A DNA stretch of 64,000 bases from Bacteroidales bacterium (GCA_017651425.1 JAGCCZ010000062.1:24564-88563), one strand, 5' to 3'. Counted from the first letter of the stretch, positions 30,961 through 49,693 are shown. Notes: generated from the letters alone by a model not told the origin. Translations and numbers: made by a program.

Positions 30961-31743
30961 TTACCAGACGCTGTCCCAATCCTCGGCATCCCGCACGGAT
31001 GGGTCTCGCTGGTATTCTAATAGTTTGGCGTATTTGAGGAAACTGTTATGGGCGATGGCCTTGGACAGAACGTAACCGTCGGTGCCGCCAAAGATGCCGC
31101 CACGCAGGAAATAGTTTACAAAAAAAGCGGAAAAACCATGGAAGAAAGGCGAAAATGCATTGGCTTTTTTGCCTTTCAGAAAGAGAATCTTCGCTCCTCG
31201 GGTACTGTAGTTTCGTTCAGGTTTGGAAAAAAGCTGGTCGTAGTTCTTGTATCGATAGTGGATCAGGTCAGCTTTCAACTCGCAAGTGTTGGTCGTTGGT
31301 ACAAAAGCGTGCTGTTTCAGTTCGGCGAAGCGCAGCTTGTCCTTGCGGAACAGGCGCACCAGATAGTCGGGATACCAGCGGCAGCACTTTACCCACCGCT
31401 CGCCGATGTAGTTGCGCCGCCGGATGGCAAAGCCGTCGTACGGAGTGTGCTCCAAATCCAGCTGTTGGATGATTGCCACGAGTTCGTCAGAAAGGCGCTC
31501 GTCGGCATCGATGCTCAGCACCCAGTCATTTTTGGCGTGCTCCAACGGCAGGTTCTTCTGCGGACCGTCGCCGATGTAGGGGTGTACGAACACGCGTGCC
31601 CCGGCCTTCTCTGCCAATTCGACGGTGTTGTCGGTGCTGCAGGAGTCGGTCACGATGACCTCGTCGCACACGCGCTGCAGCGAGTACACGCAGGCCTCGA
31701 TGTTTCGGGATTCGTTCAGGGTGGTGATGATGCCGGTGATCAT
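30961..31743 (-). CDS. family-2 glycosyltransferase
   Basis: ITTLNESRNIEACV, VIVTDSCSTDNTVELA and LSIDADERLS (DxD region). Confidence 0.85.
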   Translation of the reverse strand: MITGIITTLNESRNIEACVYSLQRVCDEVIVTDSCSTDNTVELAEKAGARVFVHPYIGDGPQKNLPLEHAKNDWVLSIDADERLSDELVAIIQQLDLEHTPYDGFAIRRRNYIGERWVKCCRWYPDYLVRLFRKDKLRFAELKQHAFVPTTNTCELKADLIHYRYKNYDQLFSKPERNYSTRGAKILFLKGKKANAFSPFFHGFSAFFVNYFLRGGIFGGTDGYVLSKAIAHNSFLKYAKLLEYQRDPSVRDAEDWDSVW

Positions 31744-33059
31744 ACGCGTTCGATTTTCGCACCGAGATTGTTCAATCTCTCCACGATATGCTCGTACCCT
31801 CTGTCGATCTGCTCGACGTTCTGGATCACGCTCTTCCCTTCGGCGCTCAGGGCTGCGATGAGCAGGGCGATGCCGGCGCGGATGTCAGGGGAGGACATCT
31901 TGGTGGCTCGCAGGCGCTTCTCGCGGGCGAGGCCGACGACGATGGCGCGGTGCGGGTCGCAGAGCACGATCTGCGCGCCCATTGACTGCAGCATATCGAC
32001 GAAGAAGAGACGGCTTTCGAACATCTTCTGGTGGATCAGCACGCTGCCCTTGGCCTGGATGGCTGTCACAAGGGCGATGCTGATGAGGTCGGGGGTGAAT
32101 CCCGGCCATGGCGCGTCGGCGATGGTCAGGATGGAGGCCTCGCGCGGGTCGGAGTAGATGCTGTACGGCTCCCGCCCGTGTACGATGAGGTCGTCGCCCT
32201 TCCGCTCGAACTGCACACCCATCTTGCCGAAGGTGTAAGGAATCAGCCCCAGATGGTCGCAGGCGCAATCCTTGATGGTCAGCTCCGACTGGGTCATGGC
32301 TGCCATGCCAATGAAGCTGCCCACCTCGATCATGTCGGGGAAGATGCGGTGCGTGCATCCGTGCAACTTCTCGACACCCTCAATCTTCAGCAGGTTGGAG
32401 CCGATGCCGGAAATCTTCGCGCCCATGTTGTTGAGCATGGTGCAGAGCTGGTACAGATAGGGCTCGCAGGCGGCGTTGAAGATGGTGGTCTCGCCCTCCG
32501 CCAACACTGCCGCCATCACGATGTTGGCGGTACCCGTCACGGATGGCTCGTTTAGCTGCATGTAGCAGCCCTTCAGGTGCTTGGCTTCTAACTCGAAGAA
32601 CTTCTCGTCCGGGGAGGTGGAAATCACCGCACCAAGCTTCTCCAACCCCTCGAAGTGGGTGGTCAGCGGGCGCCGCCCGATCTGGTCGCCGCCGGGCTTG
32701 CCGGAGTAGGCCTTGCCGTAGCGTCCCAACAGCGGACCGAGCACCATGATGGAGGCGCGGATCTTCGCCGACAGCTTCGCGAACTCGTCGGTGCGCAGCT
32801 GCTCGAAATCGACATCCTCCGCCTGGAACGTGAACGTATGCTCGTCCACCTCCGTGATCTTCACTCCCATCAGCGCCAAAATCTCGCGATAGCGCTGCGT
32901 GTCGAGGATGTTCGGGATGTTGGAGATGGTGACCGGCTCGTCGGTCAGCAGCACGGCCGAGAGCACCTGCAGAGCCTCGTTCTTCGCGCCCTGCGGGGTG
33001 ATCTCGCCGTTTAGCCGATGGCCACCTTGTATGATAAACTCTGCCATGATTCTTTTCAT
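31740..33059 (-). CDS. murA: UDP-N-acetylglucosamine 1-carboxyvinyltransferase
   Basis: IQGGHRLNGEI.PQGAKNEALQVL.A.LLT and the catalytic-loop region KPGGDQIGRRP. 4-nt overlap with the GT2 gene. An alternative ATG lies at 33047. Confidence 0.95.
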   Translation of the reverse strand: MKRIMAEFIIQGGHRLNGEITPQGAKNEALQVLSAVLLTDEPVTISNIPNILDTQRYREILALMGVKITEVDEHTFTFQAEDVDFEQLRTDEFAKLSAKIRASIMVLGPLLGRYGKAYSGKPGGDQIGRRPLTTHFEGLEKLGAVISTSPDEKFFELEAKHLKGCYMQLNEPSVTGTANIVMAAVLAEGETTIFNAACEPYLYQLCTMLNNMGAKISGIGSNLLKIEGVEKLHGCTHRIFPDMIEVGSFIGMAAMTQSELTIKDCACDHLGLIPYTFGKMGVQFERKGDDLIVHGREPYSIYSDPREASILTIADAPWPGFTPDLISIALVTAIQAKGSVLIHQKMFESRLFFVDMLQSMGAQIVLCDPHRAIVVGLAREKRLRATKMSSPDIRAGIALLIAALSAEGKSVIQNVEQIDRGYEHIVERLNNLGAKIERV

Positions 33060-36048: not shown

Positions 36049-36375
36049 TCACTCCGCCACCTCCACCTTGCTGAAGTCCATCCTCACGGGGGTGACGTTC
36101 TGCCATCCTGCCATCGGGCAAAACAACGAGCCCGTCACGCGCACGCGCTTGTGGGAATATTGGGCTGCGAAATCCTTTTCAGAAAAAGATTCATACTTTT
36201 CCCAATCCGGCACAATCATAAACTCCGACTGCCATGTTGTACCGTCTTCCGAAAGAAAATCAATTTCCTCCTGCGAAAGATATGGAGTCACATCAACGGG
36301 CTTGTCCGTCTTGAGGATAAAGGTGATGCACTCCCCTTCTTTGTGAGTTTTTCTGTAGCGGTCAATCTCTTGCAA
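36049..36375 (-). CDS. hypothetical protein (108 aa)
   Basis: TTG start only. The frame is open for 17 further codons upstream without an ATG. The C-terminal ..RVRVTGSLFCPMAGWQNVTPVRMDFSKV is duplicated as a fragment at 37901..37980. Confidence 0.4.
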   Translation of the reverse strand: MQEIDRYRKTHKEGECITFILKTDKPVDVTPYLSQEEIDFLSEDGTTWQSEFMIVPDWEKYESFSEKDFAAQYSHKRVRVTGSLFCPMAGWQNVTPVRMDFSKVEVAE

Positions 36376-36519: not shown

Positions 36520-37764
36520 TTACAACTTAGAGACAGGTACAAGGCTTATCTGGTAACCGTCTTTCTCTATCATACGTTCATCATTGTTCGTCACAATGAC
36601 AAGGTTGCTGCATTTCAACTCTCCAGCACACTCAACCAAACTGTCAACCTCGCGTTTCTCGGTTTTGGGGCTGCTTATGTCGTAACAAACCTGAACCAGC
36701 CGCTCAATGTGTGTTCCCCTTCGCAGGACGAAATCGACCTCCTTGTCATTACGCGAACGATAATAGAACATCGTCTTGTCAGTATCGTATCCACGACGTA
36801 TAAGTTCGATGAACACCTGGTTTTCAAGCAAGCGCCCGAGATTGTCGCTCAATGCGAAAGCCTTGGCCGCTACAAAGCCATTATCCACTACATAGACCTT
36901 TCGCGGGGCCTTCTTCATCAATTTCAGCTTGTTATTGTAACGGGGCAGATAATAAAACAGGTATGGCTCGTGCAGATAGTCCATGAACTTCTTGGTGGTA
37001 TTGACGCTGGAGAAGCCTAACTCTTCTGTCAATTCGTTGGCACTGACAGGATTACAGAAGTTGGAAACAAGATACATAGCGAGATTGTTCAAGTCTGTCA
37101 CATTACGTACATGGTGTCGTTTCGCCACATCCTTCCACACAATGGAGTCAAACAACGTGTCGAGATAACTACGCGTCAATGGACGTGAAGCCACCACCTC
37201 TGGATAGCCGCCATTCCTCATATAATCATCCGTCAGTACTGCGGCTTCAGTTTTCTGTTCCGGCTCCAGTTTGTGGAGGTCGAGTTGATGCCAGTCGAAA
37301 AACTCCTCCAGACTGAACGGCAGCATCTCCACCTGAAGATACTTGCCTGTCAATACTGTGGCCATCTCGCTGCTGAGCATCTTGGCATTGCTACCCGTAA
37401 TGACAAGGTTCTTGCCCATCCTGTAAAGCTCACTGACCCACAAATCCCATGCCTCAAGGTTCTGCACCTCGTCGAGCAGGATATATTCATAATCTGGATA
37501 GACATCATCCAGCATCCGCATGATCAGGTTCGCATCCCAGGCATCCAACAAAGGCTGACTGTCGAAGTTCAAATAGGCAAAGTTCTTGTAACGCAACATC
37601 AGCAAAGCCTGAGTGGATTTGCCCACACGCCGAGGTCCAGTAATCAATTTGATGAGGTGGCTGCCCAGCAAAAGATCTGTATCTTGATTGCCTCGTCGCG
37701 TCAGATAAGGACGTGACATCAAATTGTCGCGTTCCTTTTTTTGGTTGAGAATAACCGTCTTCAT
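36520..37764 (-). CDS. AAA-family ATPase with DUF4143-type C-terminus
   Basis: Walker A GPRRVGKST and Walker B ILLDEVQ. The C-terminal EVDFVL....I.L..V.Y arrangement is typical of this stand-alone ATPase family. Confidence 0.85.
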   Translation of the reverse strand: MKTVILNQKKERDNLMSRPYLTRRGNQDTDLLLGSHLIKLITGPRRVGKSTQALLMLRYKNFAYLNFDSQPLLDAWDANLIMRMLDDVYPDYEYILLDEVQNLEAWDLWVSELYRMGKNLVITGSNAKMLSSEMATVLTGKYLQVEMLPFSLEEFFDWHQLDLHKLEPEQKTEAAVLTDDYMRNGGYPEVVASRPLTRSYLDTLFDSIVWKDVAKRHHVRNVTDLNNLAMYLVSNFCNPVSANELTEELGFSSVNTTKKFMDYLHEPYLFYYLPRYNNKLKLMKKAPRKVYVVDNGFVAAKAFALSDNLGRLLENQVFIELIRRGYDTDKTMFYYRSRNDKEVDFVLRRGTHIERLVQVCYDISSPKTEKREVDSLVECAGELKCSNLVIVTNNDERMIEKDGYQISLVPVSKL

Positions 37765-37859: not shown

Positions 37860-37900
37860 ATATAGCATAAAGTACGGCAACTTCATTGTTATCCTTAGAA

Positions 37901-37980
37901 CCTTACTGAAGTCCATCCTCACCAAAGTCGCATTTTGCCAGCCGGCCATGGGCAGAACAACGAGCCCGTGACGCGGACAT
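37901..37980 (-). pseudogene. truncated, frameshifted copy of the 3' end of a 36049..36375-like gene
   Basis: About 78 nt align by eye to 36066..36140 (ccttactgaagtccatcctcac...aacaacgagcccgt.acgcg.ac). A 1-nt deletion (tgcccatgg vs tgcccgatgg) breaks the frame. There is no 5' part. Confidence 0.5.
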
Positions 37981-38040
37981 GCTGTTTATAATTGGTTTTC
38001 AAAAAGTGGAAAAATGGACAATTGCGATTGGCGAATTGTC

Positions 38041-38144: not shown

Positions 38145-39257
38145 TTATTCTTTCGCACTATAACTCCTCACCACCTCCACCTTCTTCGTCTCAGGATCCG
38201 TGTACAGGATTTGCAACCGTTCCAAGGCCGTGTTTAAAACATATTCGTAGTCGCCATTTTGGAAATGGTATTCGTGTTTTGCGGCATCGTACCGCCCTTG
38301 CGTGACAATCAGATCCGGGGCGGAAGAGAACATCTTGTCCTTCTTCCACAAAAGGAGGCGATAGGAGCCGTTCGCAACGCTGTCAACACGGACGATGGAA
38401 TCTCCCGCCTCGAACTCCGACAACAGCCAACCTGGTTCCAGCAAGTATTTGGCCAAGACAGGGTTGTATTCCAGCTGTTTGTAACGGAACTTCTCGCCGT
38501 CCCAGGTGAAACGATGGTAAAAATCCGTCATGAACAAACCGCCGTCGGGGCCTCTCAGGTAGGCGAATTGCGGCATATAGAGATCCTTTCCCGTCAGTTC
38601 GAAGAAGAAGTTTTCTTCCCAAGCACCTTCGTAGTAAAGCGACGGCGAACCAGGGGTGCACTCAACGGAAAGATTAGCGGAAAAGCCCACTGCTTTTGGG
38701 TGAATTTCGGGGATGTGCTCAAAGATTTCGGCTGGCTTTAGCAATCCTGTTTTATCCATCGAAAAGGCATCCACACCTATATCGTATGACCAACCTTCCT
38801 GACGAAAGAAATACTCAACGAGATAAACCGACCCATCTGAAGATTCCAGTTGATACAACTTCCTTGGTTCCCGATAATAGTCCTCCATAAACACCCCCTG
38901 AAACGTTACATTGTTTTTGGTTTGATAGATGGTATGGAAGCTGATTGTGCTACCGAAGTCGCCGTCTTCCCAGCTATAAACTTTCAGCTTCCCATTGGGC
39001 GAGGTGAGAAGGGTAATGCGCAACTCATACAGCTTCGCGGACAAATCCGCATCGAAAGTGGTCTCATCGTGCTGCAGTCTCTCCACGAAGCTTACCAGCT
39101 CCTTGGCGTATGCCTTTCTTTCAGGAGAGTCATCCTCGAAGGTGAGGAAGTATTTCGTGGGGTCAGTAGTAACTTGTTTTTTCTTCTTGCAGCTTGACAA
39201 GACTACGACGAGTGCTATCACTAATACGACGAGTAATAGATGGTTGTTGTTAAACAT
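38145..39257 (-). CDS. hypothetical lipoprotein, island paralog family (member 1)
   Basis: Lipobox VVLSSCKKK. The C-terminal module IVRVDSVANGSYRLLLWKKDKMFSSAPDLIVTQG is shared with 42137..43318 and, more loosely, with 46767..47879. Confidence 0.65.
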   Translation of the reverse strand: MFNNNHLLLVVLVIALVVVLSSCKKKKQVTTDPTKYFLTFEDDSPERKAYAKELVSFVERLQHDETTFDADLSAKLYELRITLLTSPNGKLKVYSWEDGDFGSTISFHTIYQTKNNVTFQGVFMEDYYREPRKLYQLESSDGSVYLVEYFFRQEGWSYDIGVDAFSMDKTGLLKPAEIFEHIPEIHPKAVGFSANLSVECTPGSPSLYYEGAWEENFFFELTGKDLYMPQFAYLRGPDGGLFMTDFYHRFTWDGEKFRYKQLEYNPVLAKYLLEPGWLLSEFEAGDSIVRVDSVANGSYRLLLWKKDKMFSSAPDLIVTQGRYDAAKHEYHFQNGDYEYVLNTALERLQILYTDPETKKVEVVRSYSAKE

Positions 39258-39320
39258 TTTTTGCTGGACTAAAATAGTAATTGATTTTCAGTTCTTCATT
39301 AATATGTCTGCATCATCCTT

Positions 39321-40592
39321 CTAACGAATCTTCAGCGTCAAAATAGTCACCGCAGCAAGTATGAGCGTGACAATACAGAACCGTAACACAATCTTCACCT
39401 CGTGATGTTTGTTTTCACTGCCTTTGAAGACAAAAGTGCAAGTTGGGTCGTATTTCCGAACGTCTTCAATGGATTTGCGGAAATGGTCATGAATCGGGGT
39501 GCCTCTCCAAACCCGCACATGGCGATTCCGTTTCTTGTAGAATTTATACACCCGCGTTTGAATGATGACGCCGAGACTTTCCACCAAGAAAACCCCACAG
39601 AGCAAAGGCAGCATCAGCTCCTTGTGGATAATCATCGCGCAAACGCCGATGATGCCGCCTATGGTTAAGCTGCCCGTGTCACCGAGGAACACCTGCGCCG
39701 GGAAACCGTTCCACCACAGGTAGCCCACCAATGCCCCGATGAATGTGGCCAGGAAGATTGTGATTTCCTCAGAGCCTGGGATGTACATTACATCGAAATA
39801 TTCAGCGAACACAACGCTGCCACTCATATATGCCAGCACTAAAAGTGCAACGCCGATTATAGCTGAATTTCCGGCGCACATACCATCCATACCGTCGTTT
39901 AGGTTGGCCCCGTTGCTCACCGCTGCGACTACGAACACCGTCAACAGCACGAAAAAGATCCAGCCTGCACGGTACTTGTTTGTCTCGCCGAGCCATGAAA
40001 ACAAGTCGGCATAGTTGAAATTATGATGTTTCACAAATGGAATTGTCGTCTGGGTGGATTTTATCTCCGGAGTTTTGTCCACCACCTCGATGTTGTTCTC
40101 GATGTGACTGCTCACCACCTCGTTCATCGTCACCGCCGGACTAAAACGCAGGGTAAGGCCGACAATCAGACCGAGTAACACCTGCCCTGCAATCTTCACC
40201 CAGCCGTTCAGGCCATCTTTGTTTTTACGGAAGGTCTTGATGTAGTCATCCGTGAAGCCAAGCAATCCCATCAACACCATAGTAACGAGCATCAGAATCA
40301 TATACACATTTGTCAGTTTGCCCAACAGCAGACAAGGAAACAAAATGGCCACGATGACGATGATGCCGCCCATAGTGGGCACATTCTTCTTCTCTTTTGC
40401 CGCCGGGTCGATCTTCTCATCGCGCTGTGTCTCGCTAATCTTGTGGCGAGTCATCCAATGGATAAACCACTTTCCGAACCAAATACTGATGCACAGTGCC
40501 ATGATGCCTGCAATGATGGCGCGGAAGGAGATGTAAGTAAACAAACTTACGCCGAAAAGGCTATTGAAATAGGTGAATAAAGAGTATAACAT
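39321..40592 (-). CDS. mraY: phospho-N-acetylmuramoyl-pentapeptide transferase
   Basis: 423 aa. KNVPTMGGIIVI, FTDDYIK, NGANLNDGMDGM, FLGDTGSLTIGG and PIHDHF are present, with the Bacteroidales-type C-terminus ..TLKIR. Confidence 0.9.
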   Translation of the reverse strand: MLYSLFTYFNSLFGVSLFTYISFRAIIAGIMALCISIWFGKWFIHWMTRHKISETQRDEKIDPAAKEKKNVPTMGGIIVIVAILFPCLLLGKLTNVYMILMLVTMVLMGLLGFTDDYIKTFRKNKDGLNGWVKIAGQVLLGLIVGLTLRFSPAVTMNEVVSSHIENNIEVVDKTPEIKSTQTTIPFVKHHNFNYADLFSWLGETNKYRAGWIFFVLLTVFVVAAVSNGANLNDGMDGMCAGNSAIIGVALLVLAYMSGSVVFAEYFDVMYIPGSEEITIFLATFIGALVGYLWWNGFPAQVFLGDTGSLTIGGIIGVCAMIIHKELMLPLLCGVFLVESLGVIIQTRVYKFYKKRNRHVRVWRGTPIHDHFRKSIEDVRKYDPTCTFVFKGSENKHHEVKIVLRFCIVTLILAAVTILTLKIR

Positions 40593-40598
40593 GATGAA

Positions 40599-41123
40599 TT
40601 ATTGTTTGATTATTACAAGATACTTTGGAGGAACAGCCTCTGTCAGCCACACATTGTTTCTTGAAAGCCAGAATTGATATCCGTCTTCCCACATTTTGTG
40701 TGCGGCAACTTTCAAAATGACCACATTCCCTTTCCTACGGCTTCCCACTTTTAACGCTATGGATTCGTCAATCGACAGGTGAACATGTTGACGGCTCATT
40801 GGTACGAGTCCTTTTTCCATGATAGAGGGCACATTTGCAGCAACGGTGCCGTGATAGAGATATTCTGGCGGTGTAGCTTCCGCCAATTCTACATCCACGG
40901 CAATACTATGCCCTTGTCGAGCACGGATGTACTGACCATCCTCCGAAAACTCGAACCGCTGTTTGTTACTATTTGCTACGATATTTATCAGTTCCTCAAG
41001 AGTGAAAGCATGACTTGTAATAAGATCACTGACCTCCCGCCAACCATGGATGTCGAAAGCGTAGTGGATGTCGTGGCGCAGGAGGTAGGCTAAACGTTTT
41101 TCTTTATGGATGTTGTCGGGCAT
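40599..41123 (-). CDS. kptA: RNA 2'-phosphotransferase (Tpt1/KptA family)
   Basis: LAYLLRHD, GW, IRARQGHS, YHGT and QHVHLS, i.e. an R-H-R-R catalytic-tetrad context. 174 aa. Confidence 0.85.
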   Translation of the reverse strand: MPDNIHKEKRLAYLLRHDIHYAFDIHGWREVSDLITSHAFTLEELINIVANSNKQRFEFSEDGQYIRARQGHSIAVDVELAEATPPEYLYHGTVAANVPSIMEKGLVPMSRQHVHLSIDESIALKVGSRRKGNVVILKVAAHKMWEDGYQFWLSRNNVWLTEAVPPKYLVIIKQ

Positions 41124-41170
41124 GGGGTAAATGATTTAAGATAACAAAAACTGGGTGGTAATGCTCAGAA

Positions 41171-42052
41171 TTATATGTTGAACCATTCCAAACTTTCTTC
41201 AAAAGTCTTTCGTAAGTCTTCAACGGATGGATCTGACGGCAATTTGTACTTTTCGTCAAGGAACGAATAGGCATATATATTCGCCAGTTTAACACCCACA
41301 AGCAACGCTTCTCCGTCTATGAGATTGACAGAAGTATTAACCGCCCTGAGCTCCTGACTGTTACGAATTGCAACTCCCACCTCCTTGTCCCATACCTTGA
41401 ATTGCCGAACGACCTCTGCTCTACCCAATCCCGTCAAATAATAAATTCCAAGGTCCACGTCACGAAAAATCGCGGGTGTTATCACATTTCCACGCTTGCC
41501 ACTGTATCCAAATCCCAATCTCGTCAAGTAAGCATCCTTGACACAGCAGTCATGAACAACGCCGAACAAGGTGTCACGTGCCTCATCGTCCGTAAATTCC
41601 CGTTCAGTATGGTATAAAACAGCCATATAGTCAATATGTGACAGTTTGTTCTTTTCTATGACATAATCTTTATCCTTGGCTAAACGCAGACAGATAAAGT
41701 AATAATTCCTGTCCGCATCAAATTGTCCCAAATTACTCTTAATAAAGTCTAACGGGAAATGACGGATGATAATCCAGGCGCATCTGTTTTCATGGTACCT
41801 CTCCCACAATTCTTTGACCTTCTGCTCAAAAGAAGGGTCCCACAAATCAAGCAACCTGGAATACACCCATTCCCTGTCGGACTTTCCGGAATCCAAAAAA
41901 GCATCCATGATCCGCTTTTGGTCCTCCCAGTCAAGACCGGAGAACCGCTTACGAATCTCGTTCCGCGACTCTGACACTTTGCCACTTTTCTTGTCGATAT
42001 AGTTCTTGATGACCGTGGCGATGGGATTGTTTCGTTTCACATTTCTGTACAT
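41171..42052 (-). CDS. hypothetical protein (293 aa, cytoplasmic)
   Basis: Clean ATG ORF, co-directional with 47-nt and 84-nt gaps to its neighbours. No motif I can assign. Confidence 0.6.
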   Translation of the reverse strand: MYRNVKRNNPIATVIKNYIDKKSGKVSESRNEIRKRFSGLDWEDQKRIMDAFLDSGKSDREWVYSRLLDLWDPSFEQKVKELWERYHENRCAWIIIRHFPLDFIKSNLGQFDADRNYYFICLRLAKDKDYVIEKNKLSHIDYMAVLYHTEREFTDDEARDTLFGVVHDCCVKDAYLTRLGFGYSGKRGNVITPAIFRDVDLGIYYLTGLGRAEVVRQFKVWDKEVGVAIRNSQELRAVNTSVNLIDGEALLVGVKLANIYAYSFLDEKYKLPSDPSVEDLRKTFEESLEWFNI

Positions 42053-42136
42053 TTCTACTATTCTTTCATTGGGCTTGACATACGAATAATGACTAATTCA
42101 AAAACAACGGGAATATTTAATCAGCATACATAGTTC

Positions 42137-43318
42137 CTAATCTTCAAAATCATACTTGGCAATCTGTTTCCCGTCTTTCAACACGTGCAAGTTATACTCA
42201 GAAACCCTATAATCATAATCCTTGTTCTTGAAAACGAACTGTTCATTTTTCTCATCCCTTGTGCCATTCGTGATGACCAGTTCTGGCTCCGAGTCCATTT
42301 TTTTGTCCGCAGCCCATGCAGCATACCGATAAACACCATCCTTCATCTTGTCAACCCTAATCAGATTTCTTTTGGTCTGTTTCAAGAATTCCATAGACTC
42401 GTAATCTTTCAAAGAAAGATGGAGAAATGGATTGGCAACGGATTTGTCGCCAATCTGCCGCATTTGTTTTCCATCCCACAAGTAGCACAAGTATCTGTCA
42501 TTCAAATAAACATCCTCTTCTGGAACGTACAGGACATTCGTTTTTTCATCAAAATAATCCAACCATTCAAACCCCATCCCACTTGTGCGACTATACCAGT
42601 CACCAGGATAAAACTCATAGGAAACAGCATGCTCCCTTCCACTTTCTTTCGTGTCCCCCTCATGACCGGCGACCTCAACCAGTCCCGAATCTGTTAGCAA
42701 ATAGACACTATATCCGATAAAGCATTCCCCTCCATAAGGAAACTCATCTGCTGTCAAATAATAATTGTCCCCTTTGACATGCAGCGTGCGCAAACTAAAA
42801 GGACAAGCCCCTGTCCAATCATGATAAAGTGAGGCTTGGTAATGTATTTTTCCAGCACGACGATACTGGACGAGCGTATATGCATCGCTCCATCGTCCAT
42901 CATGCTGTGGTTCCCATACATAAAACCGAATCATGCTGTCCTTGGAGTCGAGGATTTGAATATCCGCATAATGGCAGATGGAATCAAATGGGTAGTTCAT
43001 AGAAGAGGAATCAGACATCACCACCTCCTTAAAAAGGTCATAATCAAAATTATAGTAATCAGCTATCATATTTGAGATAGTGACACCGTCGGGGAAAAAG
43101 TAGTGTACCAGTTTCCACTCCGCCTCTTCCATCGAGGAGTAAGTAATCACCGAATCACAGTTCTCTTTGGTATATGAATGCCTTACGACAAGAGTCTTTT
43201 GCGGGAATCGCCGTTCAAATTGAGGCATATCCGTAAAACATTCCGATTGTCTGGATTTGTTTTGACAGGAAAACAACATTGTTGCCACGATGAAAATAAA
43301 AAGCGTTATTCGTTTCAT
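42137..43318 (-). CDS. hypothetical lipoprotein, island paralog family (member 2)
   Basis: ATG 43318 gives MKRITLFIFIVATMLFSCQNK. The track start 43399 overlaps the upstream gene. It shares the identical 15-mer ITYSSMEEAEWKLVH with member 3 and the C-terminal LIRVDKMKDGVYRYAAWAADKKMDSEPELVITNG with member 1. Confidence 0.65.
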   Translation of the reverse strand: MKRITLFIFIVATMLFSCQNKSRQSECFTDMPQFERRFPQKTLVVRHSYTKENCDSVITYSSMEEAEWKLVHYFFPDGVTISNMIADYYNFDYDLFKEVVMSDSSSMNYPFDSICHYADIQILDSKDSMIRFYVWEPQHDGRWSDAYTLVQYRRAGKIHYQASLYHDWTGACPFSLRTLHVKGDNYYLTADEFPYGGECFIGYSVYLLTDSGLVEVAGHEGDTKESGREHAVSYEFYPGDWYSRTSGMGFEWLDYFDEKTNVLYVPEEDVYLNDRYLCYLWDGKQMRQIGDKSVANPFLHLSLKDYESMEFLKQTKRNLIRVDKMKDGVYRYAAWAADKKMDSEPELVITNGTRDEKNEQFVFKNKDYDYRVSEYNLHVLKDGKQIAKYDFED

Positions 43319-43364
43319 ATTCGATGTTTGTCTGAATGTATTATTAACTTCCATGGTGAGGTCA

Positions 43365-44267
43365 TTACTTACACACAAACTTTTTGCCGTTCCAAACAAA
43401 TTTCCTATAATGATCGGTTATTTGGGTTGAACAGCAATATTCATCCATATCTTTATACACATACGTTCGGATATAAATGGCGGATTCGCTTGGATCAAAA
43501 TACCCTAACGTTCTAAAATCATTTTCTGCTAAAGTGTCATACATCTCGTCATTCATACAAATTTCCGTATAGAGGCTTTGGCCATCTTCTTCCCAACCGC
43601 TGAATCCACCTTTCTCTTTAAAAACGAAAGCTGGATGCAATCCTGCGCTGTCCAACTCGTAAGCACACAACCTGTAACTGTCTCCGCTACCCGTATATCC
43701 ATTGTATCCCCAGACAAAATACAGTGTGGAATAACCTGTATTAAAAGTGTAAATGGTGTCAGGCCGTAAGCAATAGTAGCAATCCTCGGCCCGTTCGGGT
43801 TCATCTGCCTTGTGCACTTTGCCATTCATCCTGTAATAGGCCAACATCATAGGCATCTCGTGTGCTGAATGAGGGAATAATCCATAACACCGTATATTTC
43901 CATCTTCGGAAGTGACAGGCTTACAAAGATCGCAGAAAGATTTATCCTCACTAAAAAGTGAATCGAACGGATAATCCATAGACGAAGGGTCGGACAAGAT
44001 TATTTTTTCAAAATCTTCATACGAACAGTTGGGCACAAAATGCACCAACTTCCACTCCGCCTCTTCCATGGAAGAGTAGGTGATTTCTGTGGAATCGTTG
44101 GCATGATGGTGAATCCAAACGAACTTTTGAGGAAATTTTTGTTCGAACTCGGGCGTTTGCATATCTAATGAAGCTACATTCTTGTTGTCGCAACTGAGCA
44201 AAACAGCAGCAAGAAAGAAGATTGATGCAACCAGTGACAGATGATTATTGAATAAATTCTCGCACAT
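43365..44267 (-). CDS. hypothetical lipoprotein, island paralog family (member 3, lacks the C-terminal module)
   Basis: Lipobox AAVLLSCDNK. The N-terminal region PEFEQKFPQK...ITYSSMEEAEWKLVH...DPSSMDYPFDS parallels member 2. Confidence 0.65.
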   Translation of the reverse strand: MCENLFNNHLSLVASIFFLAAVLLSCDNKNVASLDMQTPEFEQKFPQKFVWIHHHANDSTEITYSSMEEAEWKLVHFVPNCSYEDFEKIILSDPSSMDYPFDSLFSEDKSFCDLCKPVTSEDGNIRCYGLFPHSAHEMPMMLAYYRMNGKVHKADEPERAEDCYYCLRPDTIYTFNTGYSTLYFVWGYNGYTGSGDSYRLCAYELDSAGLHPAFVFKEKGGFSGWEEDGQSLYTEICMNDEMYDTLAENDFRTLGYFDPSESAIYIRTYVYKDMDEYCCSTQITDHYRKFVWNGKKFVCK

Positions 44268-44347
44268 GATTATAAAAATTAGGTTAAAAAAATACTGTTT
44301 ATCTTAGAATTTATGAATAACGATGCCAAACGCCCCATTTATCTTGA

Positions 44348-44551
44348 TTAATTACGGTATCTGGATCGAATCAGCAATACGCCAAGAATACAGATTATGA
44401 CAACGGTTCCGACACTGATGATACTATGAGTCACAATAGGAAGATTGAAAAACAGAGGAACAACCTGAGCGATAGCTATGAGGAAAAGTAATATTTCCGA
44501 ACCTTGTTGCAAACGTCTGTTCTTGTTTTGGTTGATGCTATTCGTAAACAC
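44348..44551 (-). CDS. possible small two-TM membrane protein
   Basis: 67 codons with a GTG start only. It has two hydrophobic stretches (ILLFLIAIAQVVPLFF, IISVGTVVIICILGVLLI) and lies 57 nt downstream of the rSAM gene. Confidence 0.35.
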   Translation of the reverse strand: MFTNSINQNKNRRLQQGSEILLFLIAIAQVVPLFFNLPIVTHSIISVGTVVIICILGVLLIRSRYRN

Positions 44552-44608
44552 AATCAGATATTTGAGCTTCCGTCCCAGAGCCTCGATGTTTTTGGGAAAC
44601 TGTCTAGA

Positions 44609-45700
44609 TCAAACTATTTTGTTGTACAGCAAATTAATTTTCTCAATCGCCTTTATCGCAAGTTTATTCTCGTAAGTATCTTCGGGGTTTGAAAGAATTC
44701 TATTCGCTGTCAAAAGTGCAGAAAAGACGGCACGGATTTTTGTAAGTTTGCATTTACTTTTATCTCTTCTATTTATTATCCCATTTGCCAGCATATTTGC
44801 GCCATAACAAGAATTACACACAGGTTCTAGATGGCAATTTTCCCGACACTCCGTGTCAACGAAACACTTTGGATTAGAGAAATCAATGTTATAGATTTCG
44901 GACATTTGATCATCAGAAAAGGTCATTGGGGTAAAAAAGGTACATGGATATCGCCGACCATCGCAATCATAGGCTGCCATATGTTCACCACACCCACACC
45001 ATTTATGTAATTCAGTTTCTTCTTCACATTTGTGAATCGGCATGTTGATAATAGGTGCAGGTTTGTATTGTGGATTATCAATATAGAATTGACACAATTT
45101 ACCAAGTTCTTCTATGATGACATTTACATGATTGTCATCGTCCCAATCTATTCCCTCAGCGAAATTTGATCCTGCTATGTTAAAACCTAATTTATGTATA
45201 TGAACAATATTGTCGTATATGTGATTGATCGTCTGCTTTGAAATAGTCATCTTCACTGTCTGAGTAGGCCAACATTCCAAGAAGAATGGAATATCAATAG
45301 CAGCATATGAATTGGAACGATTTATATTATGATCAGTTGAGGTACCATCAAGACTTAAACTTAACCAAAACTGTTCCTTATGCCGCCGTAGCCAATCTTT
45401 AATTTCCGAAGTCAACAATGTTCCGTTGGTAGTGGCAAAAAAAACATACTTGTTTCGCCACTGTTTCGTCCATGTCCATTCACAAATCTCGCGTATCGTA
45501 TCAAAAGCAACAAATGGTTCTCCCCCAAAAAGATCTATTTCCACTTCATCATAGTTCTGGTCATTAAGATAATTTTCTATAATAGATTTAGCGACGGACT
45601 TTGGCATTTTCATTGTTGATTTTGTGTTTTCGTAACAATAAACACAATTCAAATTGCAACTATGCGTTAATATCAGTGACAAATGGAATTTTCTATTCAT
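44609..45700 (-). CDS. radical SAM / SPASM-domain peptide maturase
   Basis: CNLNCVYC (the CxxxCxxC motif) at residues 15-22. C-terminal auxiliary-cluster cysteines CGCGEHMAAYDCDGRRYPC and CRENCHLEPVCNSCYG. It is immediately preceded by Cys-rich short ORFs. Confidence 0.9.
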   Translation of the reverse strand: MNRKFHLSLILTHSCNLNCVYCYENTKSTMKMPKSVAKSIIENYLNDQNYDEVEIDLFGGEPFVAFDTIREICEWTWTKQWRNKYVFFATTNGTLLTSEIKDWLRRHKEQFWLSLSLDGTSTDHNINRSNSYAAIDIPFFLECWPTQTVKMTISKQTINHIYDNIVHIHKLGFNIAGSNFAEGIDWDDDNHVNVIIEELGKLCQFYIDNPQYKPAPIINMPIHKCEEETELHKWCGCGEHMAAYDCDGRRYPCTFFTPMTFSDDQMSEIYNIDFSNPKCFVDTECRENCHLEPVCNSCYGANMLANGIINRRDKSKCKLTKIRAVFSALLTANRILSNPEDTYENKLAIKAIEKINLLYNKIV

Positions 45701-45869
45701 CTTTTTTGTATTTTTTTAACCCTGATAGTGTACCATCACAACCAGCAATATATTTTCCTTTACATGTATCGGCACATACCCCATTACAAGTCCCTTCACA
45801 ACCCACAAGCCAACGTGAACCGAAAGAAACATTACTCTGCACCCACTTCGCTAATAATTCATAAGCCAA
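45693..45869 (-). CDS. putative Cys-rich RiPP precursor 1 (58 codons, TTG start; not in ORF track)
   Basis: Hand translation: (M)AYELLAKWVQSNVSFGSRWLVGCEGTCNGVCADTCKGKYIAGCDGTLSGLKKYKKDE. It has CxxxCxxxCxxxC spacing. Its stop TAG (45695..45693) overlaps the rSAM ATG (45700..45698) by 8 nt. Confidence 0.5.
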   Translation of the reverse strand: MAYELLAKWVQSNVSFGSRWLVGCEGTCNGVCADTCKGKYIAGCDGTLSGLKKYKKDE

Positions 45870-46090
45870 ATAGTTTGTTTATTTAATTTATTATTTATCA
45901 CATTCGTAATCACAAACTTATCGTTTGAAGCCTTCATTACTCATTAAATCACAACCAATCCAGCCGGCCGTTTATTCATCACTACGCTCACAATCTCTTT
46001 CACCACAATCTCCATTGAAGCAAAACGTATAAAAATGAGGGGAAATCGAATAACAACCTTTTAAACCGCAAATTGACATGAAACCTTCTC

Positions 46091-46132
46091 ATTAAATAAA
46101 ATTTAGGGATAGCCATTAGTGCTATCCCTAAA
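46091..46132 (-). terminator. rho-independent terminator after precursor 2
   Basis: 12-bp perfect stem tttagggatagc / gctatccctaaa (46102..46132), followed on the minus strand by ttttatttaat. Confidence 0.85.
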
Positions 46133-46143
46133 TCAAATGTACG

Positions 46144-46302
46144 TTACGGATTTAAACCACCTGCCGGAGTTCCGTCACAACCGCCAACGCAGTCCCCAGA
46201 ACAGCTACCATCTGAACAATAAGCCCAACCCATGGTAGTTGTTCTTGTTTTGCCTACAATTTGCAAATCATCAAGCTTCTTGACGAGATTTGCATTCAAC
46301 AT
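46144..46302 (-). CDS. putative Cys-rich RiPP precursor 2
   Basis: MLNANLVKKLDDLQIVGKTRTTTMGWAYCSDGSCSGDCVGGCDGTPAGGLNP, taken from ATG 46302. Alternative starts are at 46314 and 46347. It shares W..C..G.C.G.C...C..GCDGT..G with precursor 1 and has its own hairpin terminator. Confidence 0.65.
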   Translation of the reverse strand: MLNANLVKKLDDLQIVGKTRTTTMGWAYCSDGSCSGDCVGGCDGTPAGGLNP

Positions 46303-46766
46303 TTTTGTTACCATAATACAAATTATTTGTTTTGTTGTTACCATCATTTTAAAACTAGGAAGACGGCATTATCCTATTCTTTTACTGTTTCTGTATTTAA
46401 AAATGGTTATCATTATCACTGTCATGACGCATTAAAAATAAGCCAATCAACAATAGCCAACCAAGCTAATAAGGATTCTAGCAGGAATAGCTTTCCCATA
46501 TTGTTTGTATTGGCCAGTTTGCTCACTCATAAAAGCATACGCCGCGTTATATCCCATCCGGCTCCGTCGGGTCTTGTTCTAAATCACTTTGCAAAGTTGC
46601 AAAATATGCCGCATAGAAACATTTGACAATATAAAGCATTTCTGTAACAATATCTTATACACCATCGCTTTGTTGCTTCGCACGTAATCACGCTCGTTTC
46701 TGTCAACCTTGCCAATGAATTGCTTTTTTGTCACTTTTTGCTCCTATGCAATAAAGAAGATAAAAC

Positions 46767-47879
46767 TCACAGCTGAGAGACCCATCTGAAGTCTCCAGAA
46801 TAAATCAGATTCTCTTCGGGGTCATAAACAAACAACTCTTCATGTTGCATACCATTCCTCCAACCATGATAGTACTCGTAACGATAGCCATTGTTGAAAA
46901 AAATGTATTTTTCGCCCAACGGTGAGCTTTCATCATCAGTCCGCCATTCGTCATGGGATATCAGAGTGTTGCTATACGACCATATTTGTTTGGTGCCGTT
47001 TTTTATAACAAGGTCGGGACTCCCCTCTTTTACCCCGCCATTCCAACATTTGTAAGTCCAGTCGTCCTCGCTTTGTTGCTCAATTCGTATGAAGTATTTG
47101 TCATTGCAGAATTCCACAGGTTCATCATATTTCTGCAACTCAAAACGCCGCTTGTTCCAATTATATTGGCGATATTTTAAAGGATTATCTATCAATGGCA
47201 TTCCTTTGAGAACATATAGTTCTTTCCTTAATCTACTGTAGATGAACACGGAATCATTTATCCCCTCGTTGAATGTCAACGACCCGCCCTGATCGTCCCA
47301 AGATAATTCAAGATTATCAGAAACGCTGTCTTTACTGGCAAAAGCCCCTTTTACTTTGCGCAATTCATTGTTTTCTATCTCATATACATAAAAATTGTAT
47401 GTTTCGCATGTCCCTTGATGCATGCTCCCTTGAAAATCTTCCAACAGATAATACTTGTCTGAATCGATATGACAAATTCGAGTAATATACCCATTGAAGT
47501 TTTCAATTTCCTCGCAGAAAACCTTTCCATTGGACCTGTATTGAAGCAATGTTTTGCACTCAAAACCCAAAGAAGGATTGCCTTCAAACCCGCACCTTTC
47601 CACGCTATAGGCTCGCACGTTGCCATCTTCTGAGGTGGCGATTCGTATATGAGAGAGTTTTTCTTCAAATCCATATTCAAGGGACTGAGGTTTTTCCTTG
47701 ATAAAATCGAAGACGGATTGCATGGCTTCGTCGGAATAAGAACCGCCTTCAGGCCATGCAAGCATCTTATTCAACTCTTCAGTGAATGTTCGTTCCTGAC
47801 GACTCTTATCACACCCACAAGAGACGAGGATCAATGCCATAGACAAACAGACTGTTTTAATATAATTTCGGGGTTTCAT
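46767..47879 (-). CDS. hypothetical lipoprotein, island paralog family (member 4, divergent)
   Basis: Lipobox LILVSCGCDK. Its architecture is like members 1-3 (..NVRAYSVE.., ..YFIRIEQQSEDDWTYKCWNGG..GSPDLVIKNG..). Confidence 0.65.
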   Translation of the reverse strand: MKPRNYIKTVCLSMALILVSCGCDKSRQERTFTEELNKMLAWPEGGSYSDEAMQSVFDFIKEKPQSLEYGFEEKLSHIRIATSEDGNVRAYSVERCGFEGNPSLGFECKTLLQYRSNGKVFCEEIENFNGYITRICHIDSDKYYLLEDFQGSMHQGTCETYNFYVYEIENNELRKVKGAFASKDSVSDNLELSWDDQGGSLTFNEGINDSVFIYSRLRKELYVLKGMPLIDNPLKYRQYNWNKRRFELQKYDEPVEFCNDKYFIRIEQQSEDDWTYKCWNGGVKEGSPDLVIKNGTKQIWSYSNTLISHDEWRTDDESSPLGEKYIFFNNGYRYEYYHGWRNGMQHEELFVYDPEENLIYSGDFRWVSQL

Positions 47880-47956: not shown

Positions 47957-48247
47957 TCACTTCACCGTCTGCACCTCCGTTATCTTGTATTGGCCATCCT
48001 CTGCGATCTCGACAGTGACGGAGAACTTGAGGGTGACCTTGGAGCCTTTCGTGCCATAGAGCTCGGCGACTAAATCGTGCTCCAGCACCCGGGAAATGCG
48101 CTGCAGCAGCCCCACGTCAATAACCTCCCGACGGAAGATGTCGTAAACGTTCTGCCGGTGGCATCCCAGTCGTCGGGCGAACTCGCTGACGCTCAGACCT
48201 GATGCCTCGAAATATTCTTTCACTTTTTCGCCTGAGTGTGTTTTCAT
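47957..48247 (-). CDS. small XRE-type helix-turn-helix protein
   Basis: GLSVSEFARRLGCHRQNVYDIFRRE. It is the last gene of the kinase/phosphatase cassette, 21 nt after the PP2C gene. Confidence 0.7.
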   Translation of the reverse strand: MKTHSGEKVKEYFEASGLSVSEFARRLGCHRQNVYDIFRREVIDVGLLQRISRVLEHDLVAELYGTKGSKVTLKFSVTVEIAEDGQYKITEVQTVK

Positions 48248-48268: not shown

Positions 48269-49693
48269 CTACTTGCTACTCTGTAACAGGTCTTCCAATA
48301 CGCTTACAATTTTGCCGTTCGTGTCAAAAGTCATAAAACAGTGAACAAGGTACGACACTTCGGTTGAATCTTGTTTGACAACCTTGAAATCTTCAATGAA
48401 ATCTACAGACACATCCCCATTTGGCAATTGCCGACAACCCCAAGTCTCCCATTGAACATCCAGGTGTTTGTCAACGGCCCCCCTTTTATTGTCAAAATTT
48501 CCAAGAAGCTCAACTGCCTTTTCCTTGCTTATATCGGTGTAGTTGATGAAACGCCTGACAGTATCAGCATACATTTGTCCAAGAGCGTCAAAATTGTTTT
48601 TTTGTACGGCCTTCGTGTAATCATCAACCTTTTGCATCAGAACACTATTGTCTAACCGATTGTCCGAACTTGATTTTTCTGTTGAATTAGCCAAAGACAC
48701 CCGCATCAGATATTCTTCAAGTTTATGTATTCTCGCGTCTTTTGCTTTGGAAAACATCAGCATGGCGAAACAAGAGCCCAAAAGCAGAACACAAATTGAT
48801 GTCAGTATAGGAAGGATCACCTTATTCCCTTTTACTCTTTTCCCTTTTGGGATTTCTGCCACGATTTCCTCAACTACGCTATCATCTTGCAGATTCTCGT
48901 TCTCATCCATTATCGGGGCGATCTCTTCTTCCTCCGCCTGATACTCCATCAACACCACCGTAATATTGTCTTTTCCTCCTGCATTATTGGCGGCAGCAAT
49001 CAAGGCCTGCACCTTCTCTTCAATCGGGAGTTCTTGCTCCAATATCGCGACTATCTGCTCAGATGTAATCATGTCCGTCAGACCGTCGGAACAGAGCAGG
49101 AAAGTGGAATTGGGCAGAAGAGGGAATTCCTCCGCGTCAAGAAAACTTTGGTCATTGACACCGTGTCGTTCCTCTCCGACGGATCTGCTTATTTCGTTGC
49201 GACGAGGGTGGCGCATAGCCTGTTCTTCGGTCAACTCGTTAATTTCCTCGCAATAGCCGACATACGAGTGGTCATGGGAGAGTTTGAGAAGTTCCCCGTT
49301 ATGATATTGATACATTCTTGTGTCGCCCACGTGTACCATATCAAGCACCTTCCTATCCGCGTCAATCAATGCGGACGTAAGCACACAGCTCATATTGGGT
49401 CGGGCTGTGTCCAACTGGCGGCGGTCAAAGATGGCATTATTGGCACACACCACGGCCTGCTTTAGCAGCTCCAAACGCTCACCTCGATTGAACTCTTTCA
49501 AATAGGAAGGGATTTCCTTTTGTGCGATCTCGGCAGCAACCTCTCCGCCTTCATAACCACCCACGCCATCAATTACAATGACCAACACGGTGCTGTCGTC
49601 CAACTTTTCCGCCACGAAAGCATCTTCGTTGTTGGTGCGCCGTTTCCCAGCATCGGTATCTCCGAAAAACCGAATTTTTTCTACGTTCCTCAT
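48269..49693 (-). CDS. PP2C (PPM) Ser/Thr phosphatase with TM segment and extracytoplasmic C-terminal domain
   Basis: GDTDAGKRRTNNEDAF, VIDGVGGYEGGEVAA, LLCSDGLTD and GGKDNITVVL. TM segment ILPILTSICVLLLGSCFAMLMF. About 150-aa C-terminal domain of unknown type. Confidence 0.85.
   Translation of the reverse strand: MRNVEKIRFFGDTDAGKRRTNNEDAFVAEKLDDSTVLVIVIDGVGGYEGGEVAAEIAQKEIPSYLKEFNRGERLELLKQAVVCANNAIFDRRQLDTARPNMSCVLTSALIDADRKVLDMVHVGDTRMYQYHNGELLKLSHDHSYVGYCEEINELTEEQAMRHPRRNEISRSVGEERHGVNDQSFLDAEEFPLLPNSTFLLCSDGLTDMITSEQIVAILEQELPIEEKVQALIAAANNAGGKDNITVVLMEYQAEEEEIAPIMDENENLQDDSVVEEIVAEIPKGKRVKGNKVILPILTSICVLLLGSCFAMLMFSKAKDARIHKLEEYLMRVSLANSTEKSSSDNRLDNSVLMQKVDDYTKAVQKNNFDALGQMYADTVRRFINYTDISKEKAVELLGNFDNKRGAVDKHLDVQWETWGCRQLPNGDVSVDFIEDFKVVKQDSTEVSYLVHCFMTFDTNGKIVSVLEDLLQSSK

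Follow-up and report, generated by a model that had tools for sequence, protein, structure and literature searches.

A gene for MraY that lies in a 64-kb stretch of a rumen Bacteroidales bacterium genome (GCA_017651425.1 JAGCCZ010000062.1:24564-88563, 64,000 nucleotides, hereafter the window) is, in our preferred reading, an accessory, horizontally spread and functional copy that travels with a KptA/Tpt1 RNA 2'-phosphotransferase gene as a two-gene cassette. The cassette sits in an array that resembles polyimmunity and defence loci, and the host would have retained the mraY of its own division-cell-wall (dcw) cluster. We put the probability of this reading at roughly 0.55. The cassette forms one item among the cargo of an array that is hypervariable, runs in one direction and, in rumen and gut Bacteroidales, usually stands downstream of a head of kinase, PP2C and helix-turn-helix (HTH) genes, with or without a fusion of a SEDS protein and a penicillin-binding protein (PBP). 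In the window, the cassette and the gene that precedes it are as follows.

39321-40592, minus strand: accessory (island-clade) MraY, phospho-MurNAc-pentapeptide translocase, 423 aa (MBO7587395.1), assigned from its TIGR00445 match, motifs, clade and selection
40599-41123, minus strand: KptA/Tpt1 RNA 2'-phosphotransferase, type A, 174 aa
41171-42052, minus strand: p293, a 293-aa cytoplasmic protein, variable cargo

Only 6 nt separate the kptA stop codon from the mraY ATG (the junction reads CAA TAA TTCATC ATG), and a tblastn search with queries from a related genome recovered no homolog of MraZ, RsmH, FtsL, PBP3, MurE, MurD, FtsW or MurG in the window, only mraY itself. The gene thus lies outside a dcw cluster, with KptA and a lipoprotein as its immediate neighbours. 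Its product scores 230 bits against TIGR00445, above the equivalog cutoff of 192.05, and also matches PF00953; the DDY, NxxNxxDGxDG (here NLNDGMDG) and GDTGS motifs align to those of E. coli MraY (PDB 8G01), and the HHH motif reads HDH, as it does in the dcw copies of related genomes. These results confirm the first-pass annotation in its description of a full-length mraY with catalytic motifs, 6 nt downstream of kptA and away from any dcw context. The ratio of nonsynonymous to synonymous substitution rates (dN/dS) is 0.03 to 0.10 for pairs of island mraY genes and 0.04 to 0.05 for dcw pairs, which argues that the island gene is not decaying, and its product looks like a functional lipid I synthase. 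Compared with canonical dcw MraY (TIGR00445, for example in L009), the island protein is 78 to 82% identical over its full length and shares the 423-aa Bacteroidales architecture, the HDH motif, the C-terminal insert and equal purifying selection, but it belongs to a separate clade, carries derived substitutions and is gained and lost among accessory genes.

The substitutions derived in the island clade (F64A, V66K, V225L, Q347R, L367I, Q377D, and L395K), together with raised variability, concentrate at residues 41 to 80 and 341 to 400, which we assign to cytoplasmic loops A and E, on the face of the protein where the nucleotide substrate and nucleoside inhibitors bind. This pattern may be read as a hint of an arms race. 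MraY is the known target of phiX174 protein E (YES-complex structures 8G01/8G02), and an extra copy might act as an antiphage decoy that titrates or resists a single-gene lysis protein of this type, with KptA countering phage manipulation of RNA. Such a role would fit the defence-island company of these genes, namely, the PDC-S01 ATPase, TIR proteins, AbiEii, and WYL regulators. However, the island-specific changes fall outside the transmembrane segment aligned to the E. coli F288 region, and PADLOC matched neither MraY nor KptA, nor p293 or the lipoproteins, but only an AAA_14 ATPase (PDC-S01) and generic kinase/PP2C genes. We also know of no E-like lysis proteins from Bacteroidales phages, and we consider the decoy extremely improbable.

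The KptA of the cassette matches PF01885 (E 6.6e-42) over residues 8 to 162 of 174. Four cassette KptAs all carry residues R16, H17, R56, and R111, which correspond in alignment to R16/H17/R64/R119 of Runella Tpt1 (7KW8), so that the enzyme is predicted to be catalytically competent, although its best NCBIfam equivalog score of 190.4 falls below the cutoff of 239. With a length of about 175 aa, a full-length PF01885 domain and the Arg-His-Arg-Arg tetrad, it resembles characterized Tpt1/KptA enzymes (Runella slithyformis 7KW8; E. coli KptA). The array KptAs differ from these in scoring below the equivalog cutoffs, in forming two divergent types and in residing in hypervariable arrays with mraY, lipoproteins and ADP-ribose-processing enzymes.

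The linkage of the two genes recurs in relatives. Among 10 contexts chosen by MraY similarity alone (the window, P0004, P0016, L014, L016, P0092, P0054, P0061, P0052, and P0008), KptA is the direct neighbour of MraY in 8, with gaps of 6 to 35 nt, and this recurrence places the adjacency beyond chance. The arrangements seen are listed here.

KptA then MraY, gap of 6 nt: window, L004, L211
MraY then KptA, gap of 11 to 35 nt: L007, L016, L172, L175, L209
MraY then a calcineurin-like metallophosphoesterase, gap of 3 nt: L014
MraY with neither KptA nor metallophosphoesterase: L210

KptAs of the upstream type share only about 52% identity with those of the downstream type, and both arrangements are interspersed in the MraY tree. 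Island MraYs thus appear to keep KptA or another phosphate-removing enzyme as a direct neighbour through rearrangements. Moreover, a small pyrophosphatase-like gene often lies directly upstream of mraY (L172, L175, and L139; PF00719, 25.8 bits versus a cutoff of 23.5), and this neighbour and the metallophosphoesterase that replaces KptA in L014 together suggest that removal of phosphate groups is the coselected activity. ARH-PTP fusions, in which ARH denotes an ADP-ribosylglycohydrolase, adjoin the cassette in L091, L154, and L211. In L155 (positions 6-1930), a divergent MraY (52% identical, with a PIHHHY version of the HHH motif, without the Bacteroidales C-terminal insert and cut by the contig end) is followed by a 298-aa open reading frame (ORF) and a KptA whose start overlaps the stop of that ORF, in an array that also holds a p293-like protein and a radical SAM protein; this suggests an older or independent MraY-KptA association. 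In the literature searched we found no description of a MraY and KptA pairing.

The dependence seems to be that of MraY on KptA, as an mraY or mraY remnant was present in only about 15 of 72 loci selected by KptA. KptA relatives of 44 to 57% identity were also found on 31 IMG/VR contigs (L178-L208), many of them 200 to 670 kb long with 27 to 42% GC, and one of these (L181) has a PARG-PTP-KptA arrangement as in the metagenome arrays; no island-type MraY was found in IMG/VR. Part of the ARH/PARG picture may therefore be phage derived. Among the KptA loci, L098:10001-10515 has KptA matches in two frames, which reflects a frameshift or an assembly error, and several ORFs of 480 to 540 aa (P0260 and L103/L104/L121/L123/L125) have a KptA domain fused to, or read through from, another domain.

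One explanation of so persistent a linkage would be a direct biochemical partnership in which KptA acts on the lipid I step itself and the paired MraY restores or uses the substrate. Speculatively, KptA could use NAD+ to strip the uridine ribose of UDP-MurNAc-pentapeptide of a 2'/3'-phosphate installed by a toxin, or it could transfer ADP-ribose to a phosphomonoester, for instance undecaprenyl phosphate; ADP-ribosylation of terminal phosphates is within the capacity of Tpt1 enzymes, as summarized in PMC11833690. The survival of the adjacency through inversion of gene order and exchange of KptA types, the metallophosphoesterase in KptA's place in L014 and the frequent pyrophosphatase-like gene would all be expected from a partnership. 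Against it stand the lack of precedent for such a substrate, the many KptA copies of these same types that occur without MraY, the MraY of L210, which has no phosphate-removing neighbour, and the KptA relatives that are common on large viral contigs without MraY. We regard the partnership as unlikely.

In gene maps of about 90 loci, the arrays are long and keep to one strand, and their content differs from one contig to the next. L137 and L007 share 95.4% DNA identity from about nucleotide 1123 of mraY through kptA and beyond, with the body of mraY replaced, and L142 and L175 differ at the same mraY breakpoint. In L014 (10001-14880), MraY and a 192-aa calcineurin-like phosphoesterase are followed by an ATPase_2 gene in inverted orientation and then by a second, truncated MraY (residues 128 to 423) and a partial phosphoesterase. 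Between L007 and the window, lipoprotein D is 97% identical and KptA 52% identical, and the remaining cargo differs. From these comparisons the cassette appears to be dispensable cargo, gained and lost between near-identical loci. Families that recur in the arrays include a lipoprotein (55 copies), ARH (29 copies), and radical SAM proteins (26 copies), besides microbial PARG, NADAR, NUDIX-NrtR, RtcB, RlaP, RNA ligase, HD/HD_4 hydrolases, PTP-like phosphatases, isochorismatase, vWA, Sel1, GH25, and WYL regulators. A paralog of tryptophanyl-tRNA synthetase (TrpRS; KMSKS motif, PF00579), located between a radical SAM gene and an amidohydrolase gene in a KptA array (L107:8086-9099; also in L106), is another case, after MraY, in which the cargo of an array includes a paralog of an essential enzyme. 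Many arrays begin after the PP2C-HTH pair of a kinase/PP2C(/SEDS-PBP) head, and they commonly end in ATPases of the type found in defence islands; transposases were seen in L004 and L175 only. In L004 the cassette neighbours TIR proteins, a transposase and a PIF1 helicase, with no kinase/SEDS head in view.

Phylogeny and composition point to the origin of the island gene. In a neighbour-joining tree of 207 MraY sequences with 60 bootstraps, all array MraYs with a verified non-dcw context fall into one 74-member clade (60/60 bootstraps) that contains no dcw copy. Rumen Paludibacteraceae contribute the 86 dcw MraYs of its sister clade, and more Paludibacteraceae dcw MraYs branch outside both; this nesting indicates that the island MraY derives from the dcw mraY of that lineage. 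The comparison with core MraY that the first-pass annotation had proposed thus sets the island copies apart as a clade of their own within dcw diversity. MraY homologs are abundant at 80 to 93% identity. The matches at about 81%, from Paludibacteraceae metagenome-assembled genomes (MAGs), lie in an mraZ-rsmH-ftsL-PBP-murE-mraY-murD-ftsW-murG cluster (for example, L009), and those at 84 to 93% lie in accessory arrays. A lineage-typical arrangement, in which related genomes would uniformly have a single mraY beside kptA, had been named as the outcome that would remove the anomaly; instead, murE and/or murD adjoin mraY in 76 of 80 loci from GTDB species representatives (65 to 82% MraY identity).

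The GC content at third codon positions (GC3) is 0.64 for the island mraY, compared with 0.80 to 0.86 for the host genes for MurA, PFK, and HtpG and with a mean of 0.637 for the dcw mraY genes of the sister clade. Sequence identities are discordant as well: the host HtpG is only 56% identical to the copy in L069, whose MraY is 79% identical, and against L009, with 81% identity in MraY, the host DHH protein reaches 37%, whereas within the sister clade DHH proteins are 58 to 75% identical at 84 to 87% MraY identity. Named relatives of the host ParC at 65% identity or more are all labeled "Bacteroidales bacterium," and the named dcw-type relatives of MraY are labeled "Paludibacteraceae bacterium." The closest relatives are rumen Paludibacteraceae or Bacteroidales MAGs, and since MraY matches a Bacteroides plasmid-collection sequence at 58% and Prevotella at 56%, the label "Prevotella-like" that had been applied to this lineage does not fit. 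Clade, foreign GC3, discordance with host markers and gain/loss variants together make it by far the most likely, on sequence evidence, that the window mraY is a horizontally acquired, accessory xenolog. The first-pass annotation had left open whether the gene was a second copy or the only one, and the former is favoured by this indirect support.

The other branch, that the single mraY of the host was moved or xenologously replaced next to kptA and an essential gene now resides in variable DNA, is very improbable in our view. It can draw on the monophyly and dcw-like selection of the island clade, on the fact that the second copy was not directly seen, and on an unusual mraY of a Paludibacteraceae MAG. 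This gene (L083:10001-11284), which is outside the island clade, lies beside rplU, rpmA, and serS, with uppP, truB, and queA upstream and no dcw neighbours, so that a core context, too, can hold an mraY that has left the dcw cluster. The foreign GC3, the identity discordance, the deletion and partial-duplicate variants and the occurrence of the same cassette in differing genomic neighbourhoods all speak against relocation of an only copy.

The cassette of the window is embedded in an island of about 36.4 to 58.3 kb, which has a GC content of 0.37 to 0.47 (flanks, 0.52 to 0.59), all of its genes on one strand, and flanks of ordinary chromosomal genes (SufB, RND efflux, ParC, Rnf, MurA, PFK, and HtpG). 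Its other features, from the distal array end to the head, are as follows.

36520-37764, minus strand: AAA_14/DUF4143 ATPase at the distal array end, PADLOC candidate defence gene PDC-S01 (347 bits)
38145-39257, minus strand: lipoprotein paralog A, 370 aa, downstream neighbour of mraY, lipobox in the translation
42137-43399, minus strand: lipoprotein paralog B, 405 to 420 aa, start codon uncertain
43365-44267, minus strand: lipoprotein paralog C, 300 aa
44348-44551, minus strand: f27 remnant, the C-terminal 67 codons of a 385-aa membrane-anchored family, recognized by comparing the translation with the f27 sequence
44609-45700, minus strand: radical SAM/SPASM peptide maturase (CXXX-repeat/PapB-like; PF04055, TIGR04115, and NF047865, below equivalog cutoffs)
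45693-45869, minus strand: candidate Cys-rich precursor peptide 1 (…GCEGTCNGVCADTCKG…GCDGT…), from ORF translation
46144-46347, minus strand: candidate Cys-rich precursor peptide 2 (…CSDGSCSGDCVGGCDGT…), from ORF translation
46767-47879, minus strand: lipoprotein D, 370 aa, a separate family
47957-48247, minus strand: HTH_3 regulator that separates the conserved head from the variable array, its position kept in L001-L003, L014, and L172
48269-58298, minus strand: conserved island head (PP2C, p322, p269, Ser/Thr kinase, p187, and SEDS-transpeptidase fusion)
48269-49693, minus strand: PP2C, within the head
51503-53284, minus strand: Ser/Thr kinase with coiled coil, within the head
53883-58298, minus strand: SEDS-transpeptidase fusion, 1,471 aa, within the head

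The array (38145-47879) lies wholly on the minus strand, with gaps of 6 to 84 nt and one overlapping pair from lipoprotein A to lipoprotein C and larger gaps around the radical SAM peptide module, and the same tandem layout is seen in relatives. The earlier claim that mraY is tightly coupled to kptA in a one-directional island that also encodes the SEDS-PBP fusion is supported, and the island is compositionally foreign. Both outer neighbours of the p293-kptA-mraY block are lipoprotein paralogs with a signal peptide and a lipobox Cys. Lipoprotein A belongs to the 55-copy family; its AlphaFold2 model is all beta (pLDDT 84.5), and no PDB match had a TM score above 0.25. The 293-aa protein upstream of kptA had been called unassignable, and p293 indeed matched no family among Pfam, NCBIfam-type profiles and PADLOC. 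It is, however, not a conserved partner but variable cargo: weak relatives occur only in L127 (44%) and L155 (33%), it is unrelated to the 293-aa ORF of L004, and its single-sequence AlphaFold2 model is poor (pLDDT 41.6). The f27 remnant, which comprises a C-terminal membrane anchor, appears to record cargo turnover in the window array; f27 is intact in L007 and L014, between isochorismatase and lipoprotein genes. The AAA_14/DUF4143 ATPase is bracketed by direct repeats of about 85 nt (36065-36149 and 37900-37983, 77 to 85% identical) that resemble pieces of a duplicated 108-aa ORF. Just beyond the island, a gene at 61721-62914 (plus strand) encodes a 397-aa protein that combines an RHS repeat with a C-terminal sorting domain for type IX secretion.

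The radical SAM module invites a different explanation. An extra housekeeping copy beside antibiotic biosynthetic genes is the hallmark of self-resistance by target duplication, and if Cys-rich peptides matured by the radical SAM/SPASM enzyme, that is, ribosomally synthesized and posttranslationally modified peptides (RiPPs), disturbed the lipid I/II cycle, then the extra MraY and the lipoproteins might protect the producer. Two Cys-rich precursor-like ORFs and the maturase do lie 4 to 6 kb upstream of mraY on the same strand, with a hairpin of 14-bp stem at 46134-46100, just after candidate precursor peptide 2, which is the upstream-most precursor. In L155, a maturase of 58% identity stands beside a Cys-rich precursor with three CSDGSCRGDCVGGCEG repeats, and radical SAM genes occur in most MraY arrays (the window, L007, L014, L016, L094, L098, L139, L143, L176, L210, and L155). 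The TrpRS paralog beside a radical SAM gene in L107 fits the same logic. The resemblance to target-duplication resistance, a duplicated essential target a few kilobases from a peptide-maturase module, is offset by the finding that the island has no exporter or leader peptidase, that MraY is linked to KptA and never adjacent to the radical SAM gene, and that no radical SAM gene is in view for the cassettes of L004/L093, L172, L209, and L211. Ranthipeptide-like products, moreover, have no cell wall target that we know of. We consider RiPP self-resistance distinctly unlikely as the function of the cassette.

A further explanation looks to the island head. MraY and the SEDS-transpeptidase fusion, together with the Ser/Thr kinase, PP2C and FHA-like proteins, could form a kinase-regulated auxiliary cell wall module, a second peptidoglycan line switched on by envelope stress or for remodelling, to which KptA and the other cargo would be incidental. 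In actinobacteria, the order fhaA-fhaB-pstP-rodA-pbpA-pknA-pknB unites PP2C, Ser/Thr kinase, SEDS and class B PBP genes, and the head, which includes a weak FHA signal in p269, resembles this operon. It differs in that the SEDS protein and PBP are fused, with an N-terminal extension of 700 aa, and in that it lies in low-GC accessory Bacteroidales DNA (GC3 of about 0.48 for the head genes) with a variable cargo array behind it. The array stands downstream of a SEDS-PBP/kinase/PP2C/HTH head in the window, and the head, in whole or in part, precedes arrays in L016, L094, L140, L172, L175, and L209; all the genes are on a single strand, and there is no convincing terminator between p293, kptA, mraY, and lipoprotein A. 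These points would suit an auxiliary module, but the cassette of L004 has no head in view, many arrays behind a similar head or with the same KptA have no MraY, the 64-kb window lacks MurG, a flippase and Mur ligases, and the conserved adjacency to KptA in two gene orders would be left unexplained. The suggestion that the island was designed as a self-contained wall-synthesis unit is thus doubtful, and we regard the auxiliary module as possible but not probable. Two side observations concern peptidoglycan genes here: the N-terminal region of about 700 aa in the SEDS-class B transpeptidase fusion has no assigned function, and MurA (31740-33059, minus strand), the first committed peptidoglycan step, is a core gene of host composition about 6 kb from the island edge, a proximity that seems coincidental.

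Returning to the accessory cassette, its array most resembles loci known from interbacterial competition. Polyimmunity loci have a uniform orientation, short gaps and strain-level variation and are enriched in Bacteroidetes (Zhang et al. 2012, PMC3482391), and acquired interbacterial defence (AID) clusters occur in gut Bacteroidales (bioRxiv 10.1101/471110). The arrays described here share the long same-strand layout of four or more tandem genes, the short gaps, the differing content of near-identical strains and the setting in dense gut Bacteroidales communities, and sister arrays contain candidates for enzymatic toxin reversal (ARH). They differ in their attachment to a kinase/PP2C/SEDS-PBP head, in a cargo of essential-enzyme paralogs (MraY, and TrpRS in L107), RiPP modules and large lipoproteins, and in lacking Imm/SUKH families and a XerC/D-type recombinase; because of the last two points, we describe the locus as working like a polyimmunity system and not as a member of that class. 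[quoted passage not shown] The MraY-KptA cassette combines the concepts of polyimmunity/AID, Tri1-type enzymatic immunity and target-duplication resistance in a new way, and our searches turned up no account of MraY paralogs in arrays devoted to immunity or defence.

Several points weigh against our interpretation. The coexistence of a second, dcw-cluster mraY in the same genome is an inference. Monophyly and purifying selection would also be seen in a sister family whose single mraY had been relocated and then inherited vertically; only composition and identity discordance oppose that pattern, and the calibration of the discordance is based on few shared genes. The mraY-deletion variants are short contigs, and an intact mraY may be present elsewhere in those arrays. 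The picture of array content is biased by loci selected through KptA, and some ARH/PARG arrays are possibly phage borne. A Pfam scan of the array proteins of the window found no Imm/SUKH, ARH or macro domain, Imm/SUKH is absent from the top families of 127 array proteins, and the window contains no annotated recombinase, mobile-element marker or tRNA. Finally, no MraY-targeting toxin of interbacterial conflict was found in the literature searched.

Our results lead us to envisage the array as a collection of functionally parallel protective genes in the style of polyimmunity and acquired defence. The extra MraY would serve as a reserve, or as a version with lower sensitivity, of an essential enzyme hit by a toxin, phage lysis protein or inhibitor, and it buffers or bypasses the inhibition of lipid I synthesis, and KptA would use NAD+ to remove a phosphate-type lesion from RNA or from a nucleotide-linked substrate, as part of a damage-reversal toolbox with the ARH, PARG, NADAR, NUDIX, and RtcB of sister arrays. 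The host would keep its own dcw mraY elsewhere. More tentatively still, and at a likelihood we regard as low, gut and rumen Bacteroidales may possess a class of toxins, so far undescribed and plausibly NAD+- or phosphate-transferring, that is directed at MraY or its substrates; the cassette would then provide target replacement plus damage-reversal immunity, with fast-evolving cytoplasmic loops that let the spare MraY escape or outnumber the toxin and with KptA removing the lesion at the expense of NAD+.

The arrays extend the concept of polyimmunity and acquired defence to enzymes and essential-gene paralogs (MraY and TrpRS) behind a kinase/phosphatase/peptidoglycan-synthase head. To our knowledge, bacterial Tpt1/KptA enzymes, with their robust in vitro activity, have had no known substrate for more than 25 years, and a linkage of KptA to mraY that resists rearrangement, together with the company of ARH, PARG, NADAR, NUDIX, and RtcB in sister arrays, leads to testable hypotheses for a role of KptA in conflict or repair. 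The enzyme MraY is essential, is normally present as a single copy and has long been sought after as an antibiotic target. Duplication of a target has proved a good pointer to the agents that attack it, and a mobile, selectively maintained second mraY implies that the lipid I step is under attack by something in these communities. If the reading that invokes a new toxin class were true, the cassette would be the first example of target-replacement plus damage-reversal immunity, would provide the first physiological role for a bacterial Tpt1 and would point to a new natural MraY inhibitor. Our findings suggest that the synthesis of lipid I comes under attack in microbial conflict.

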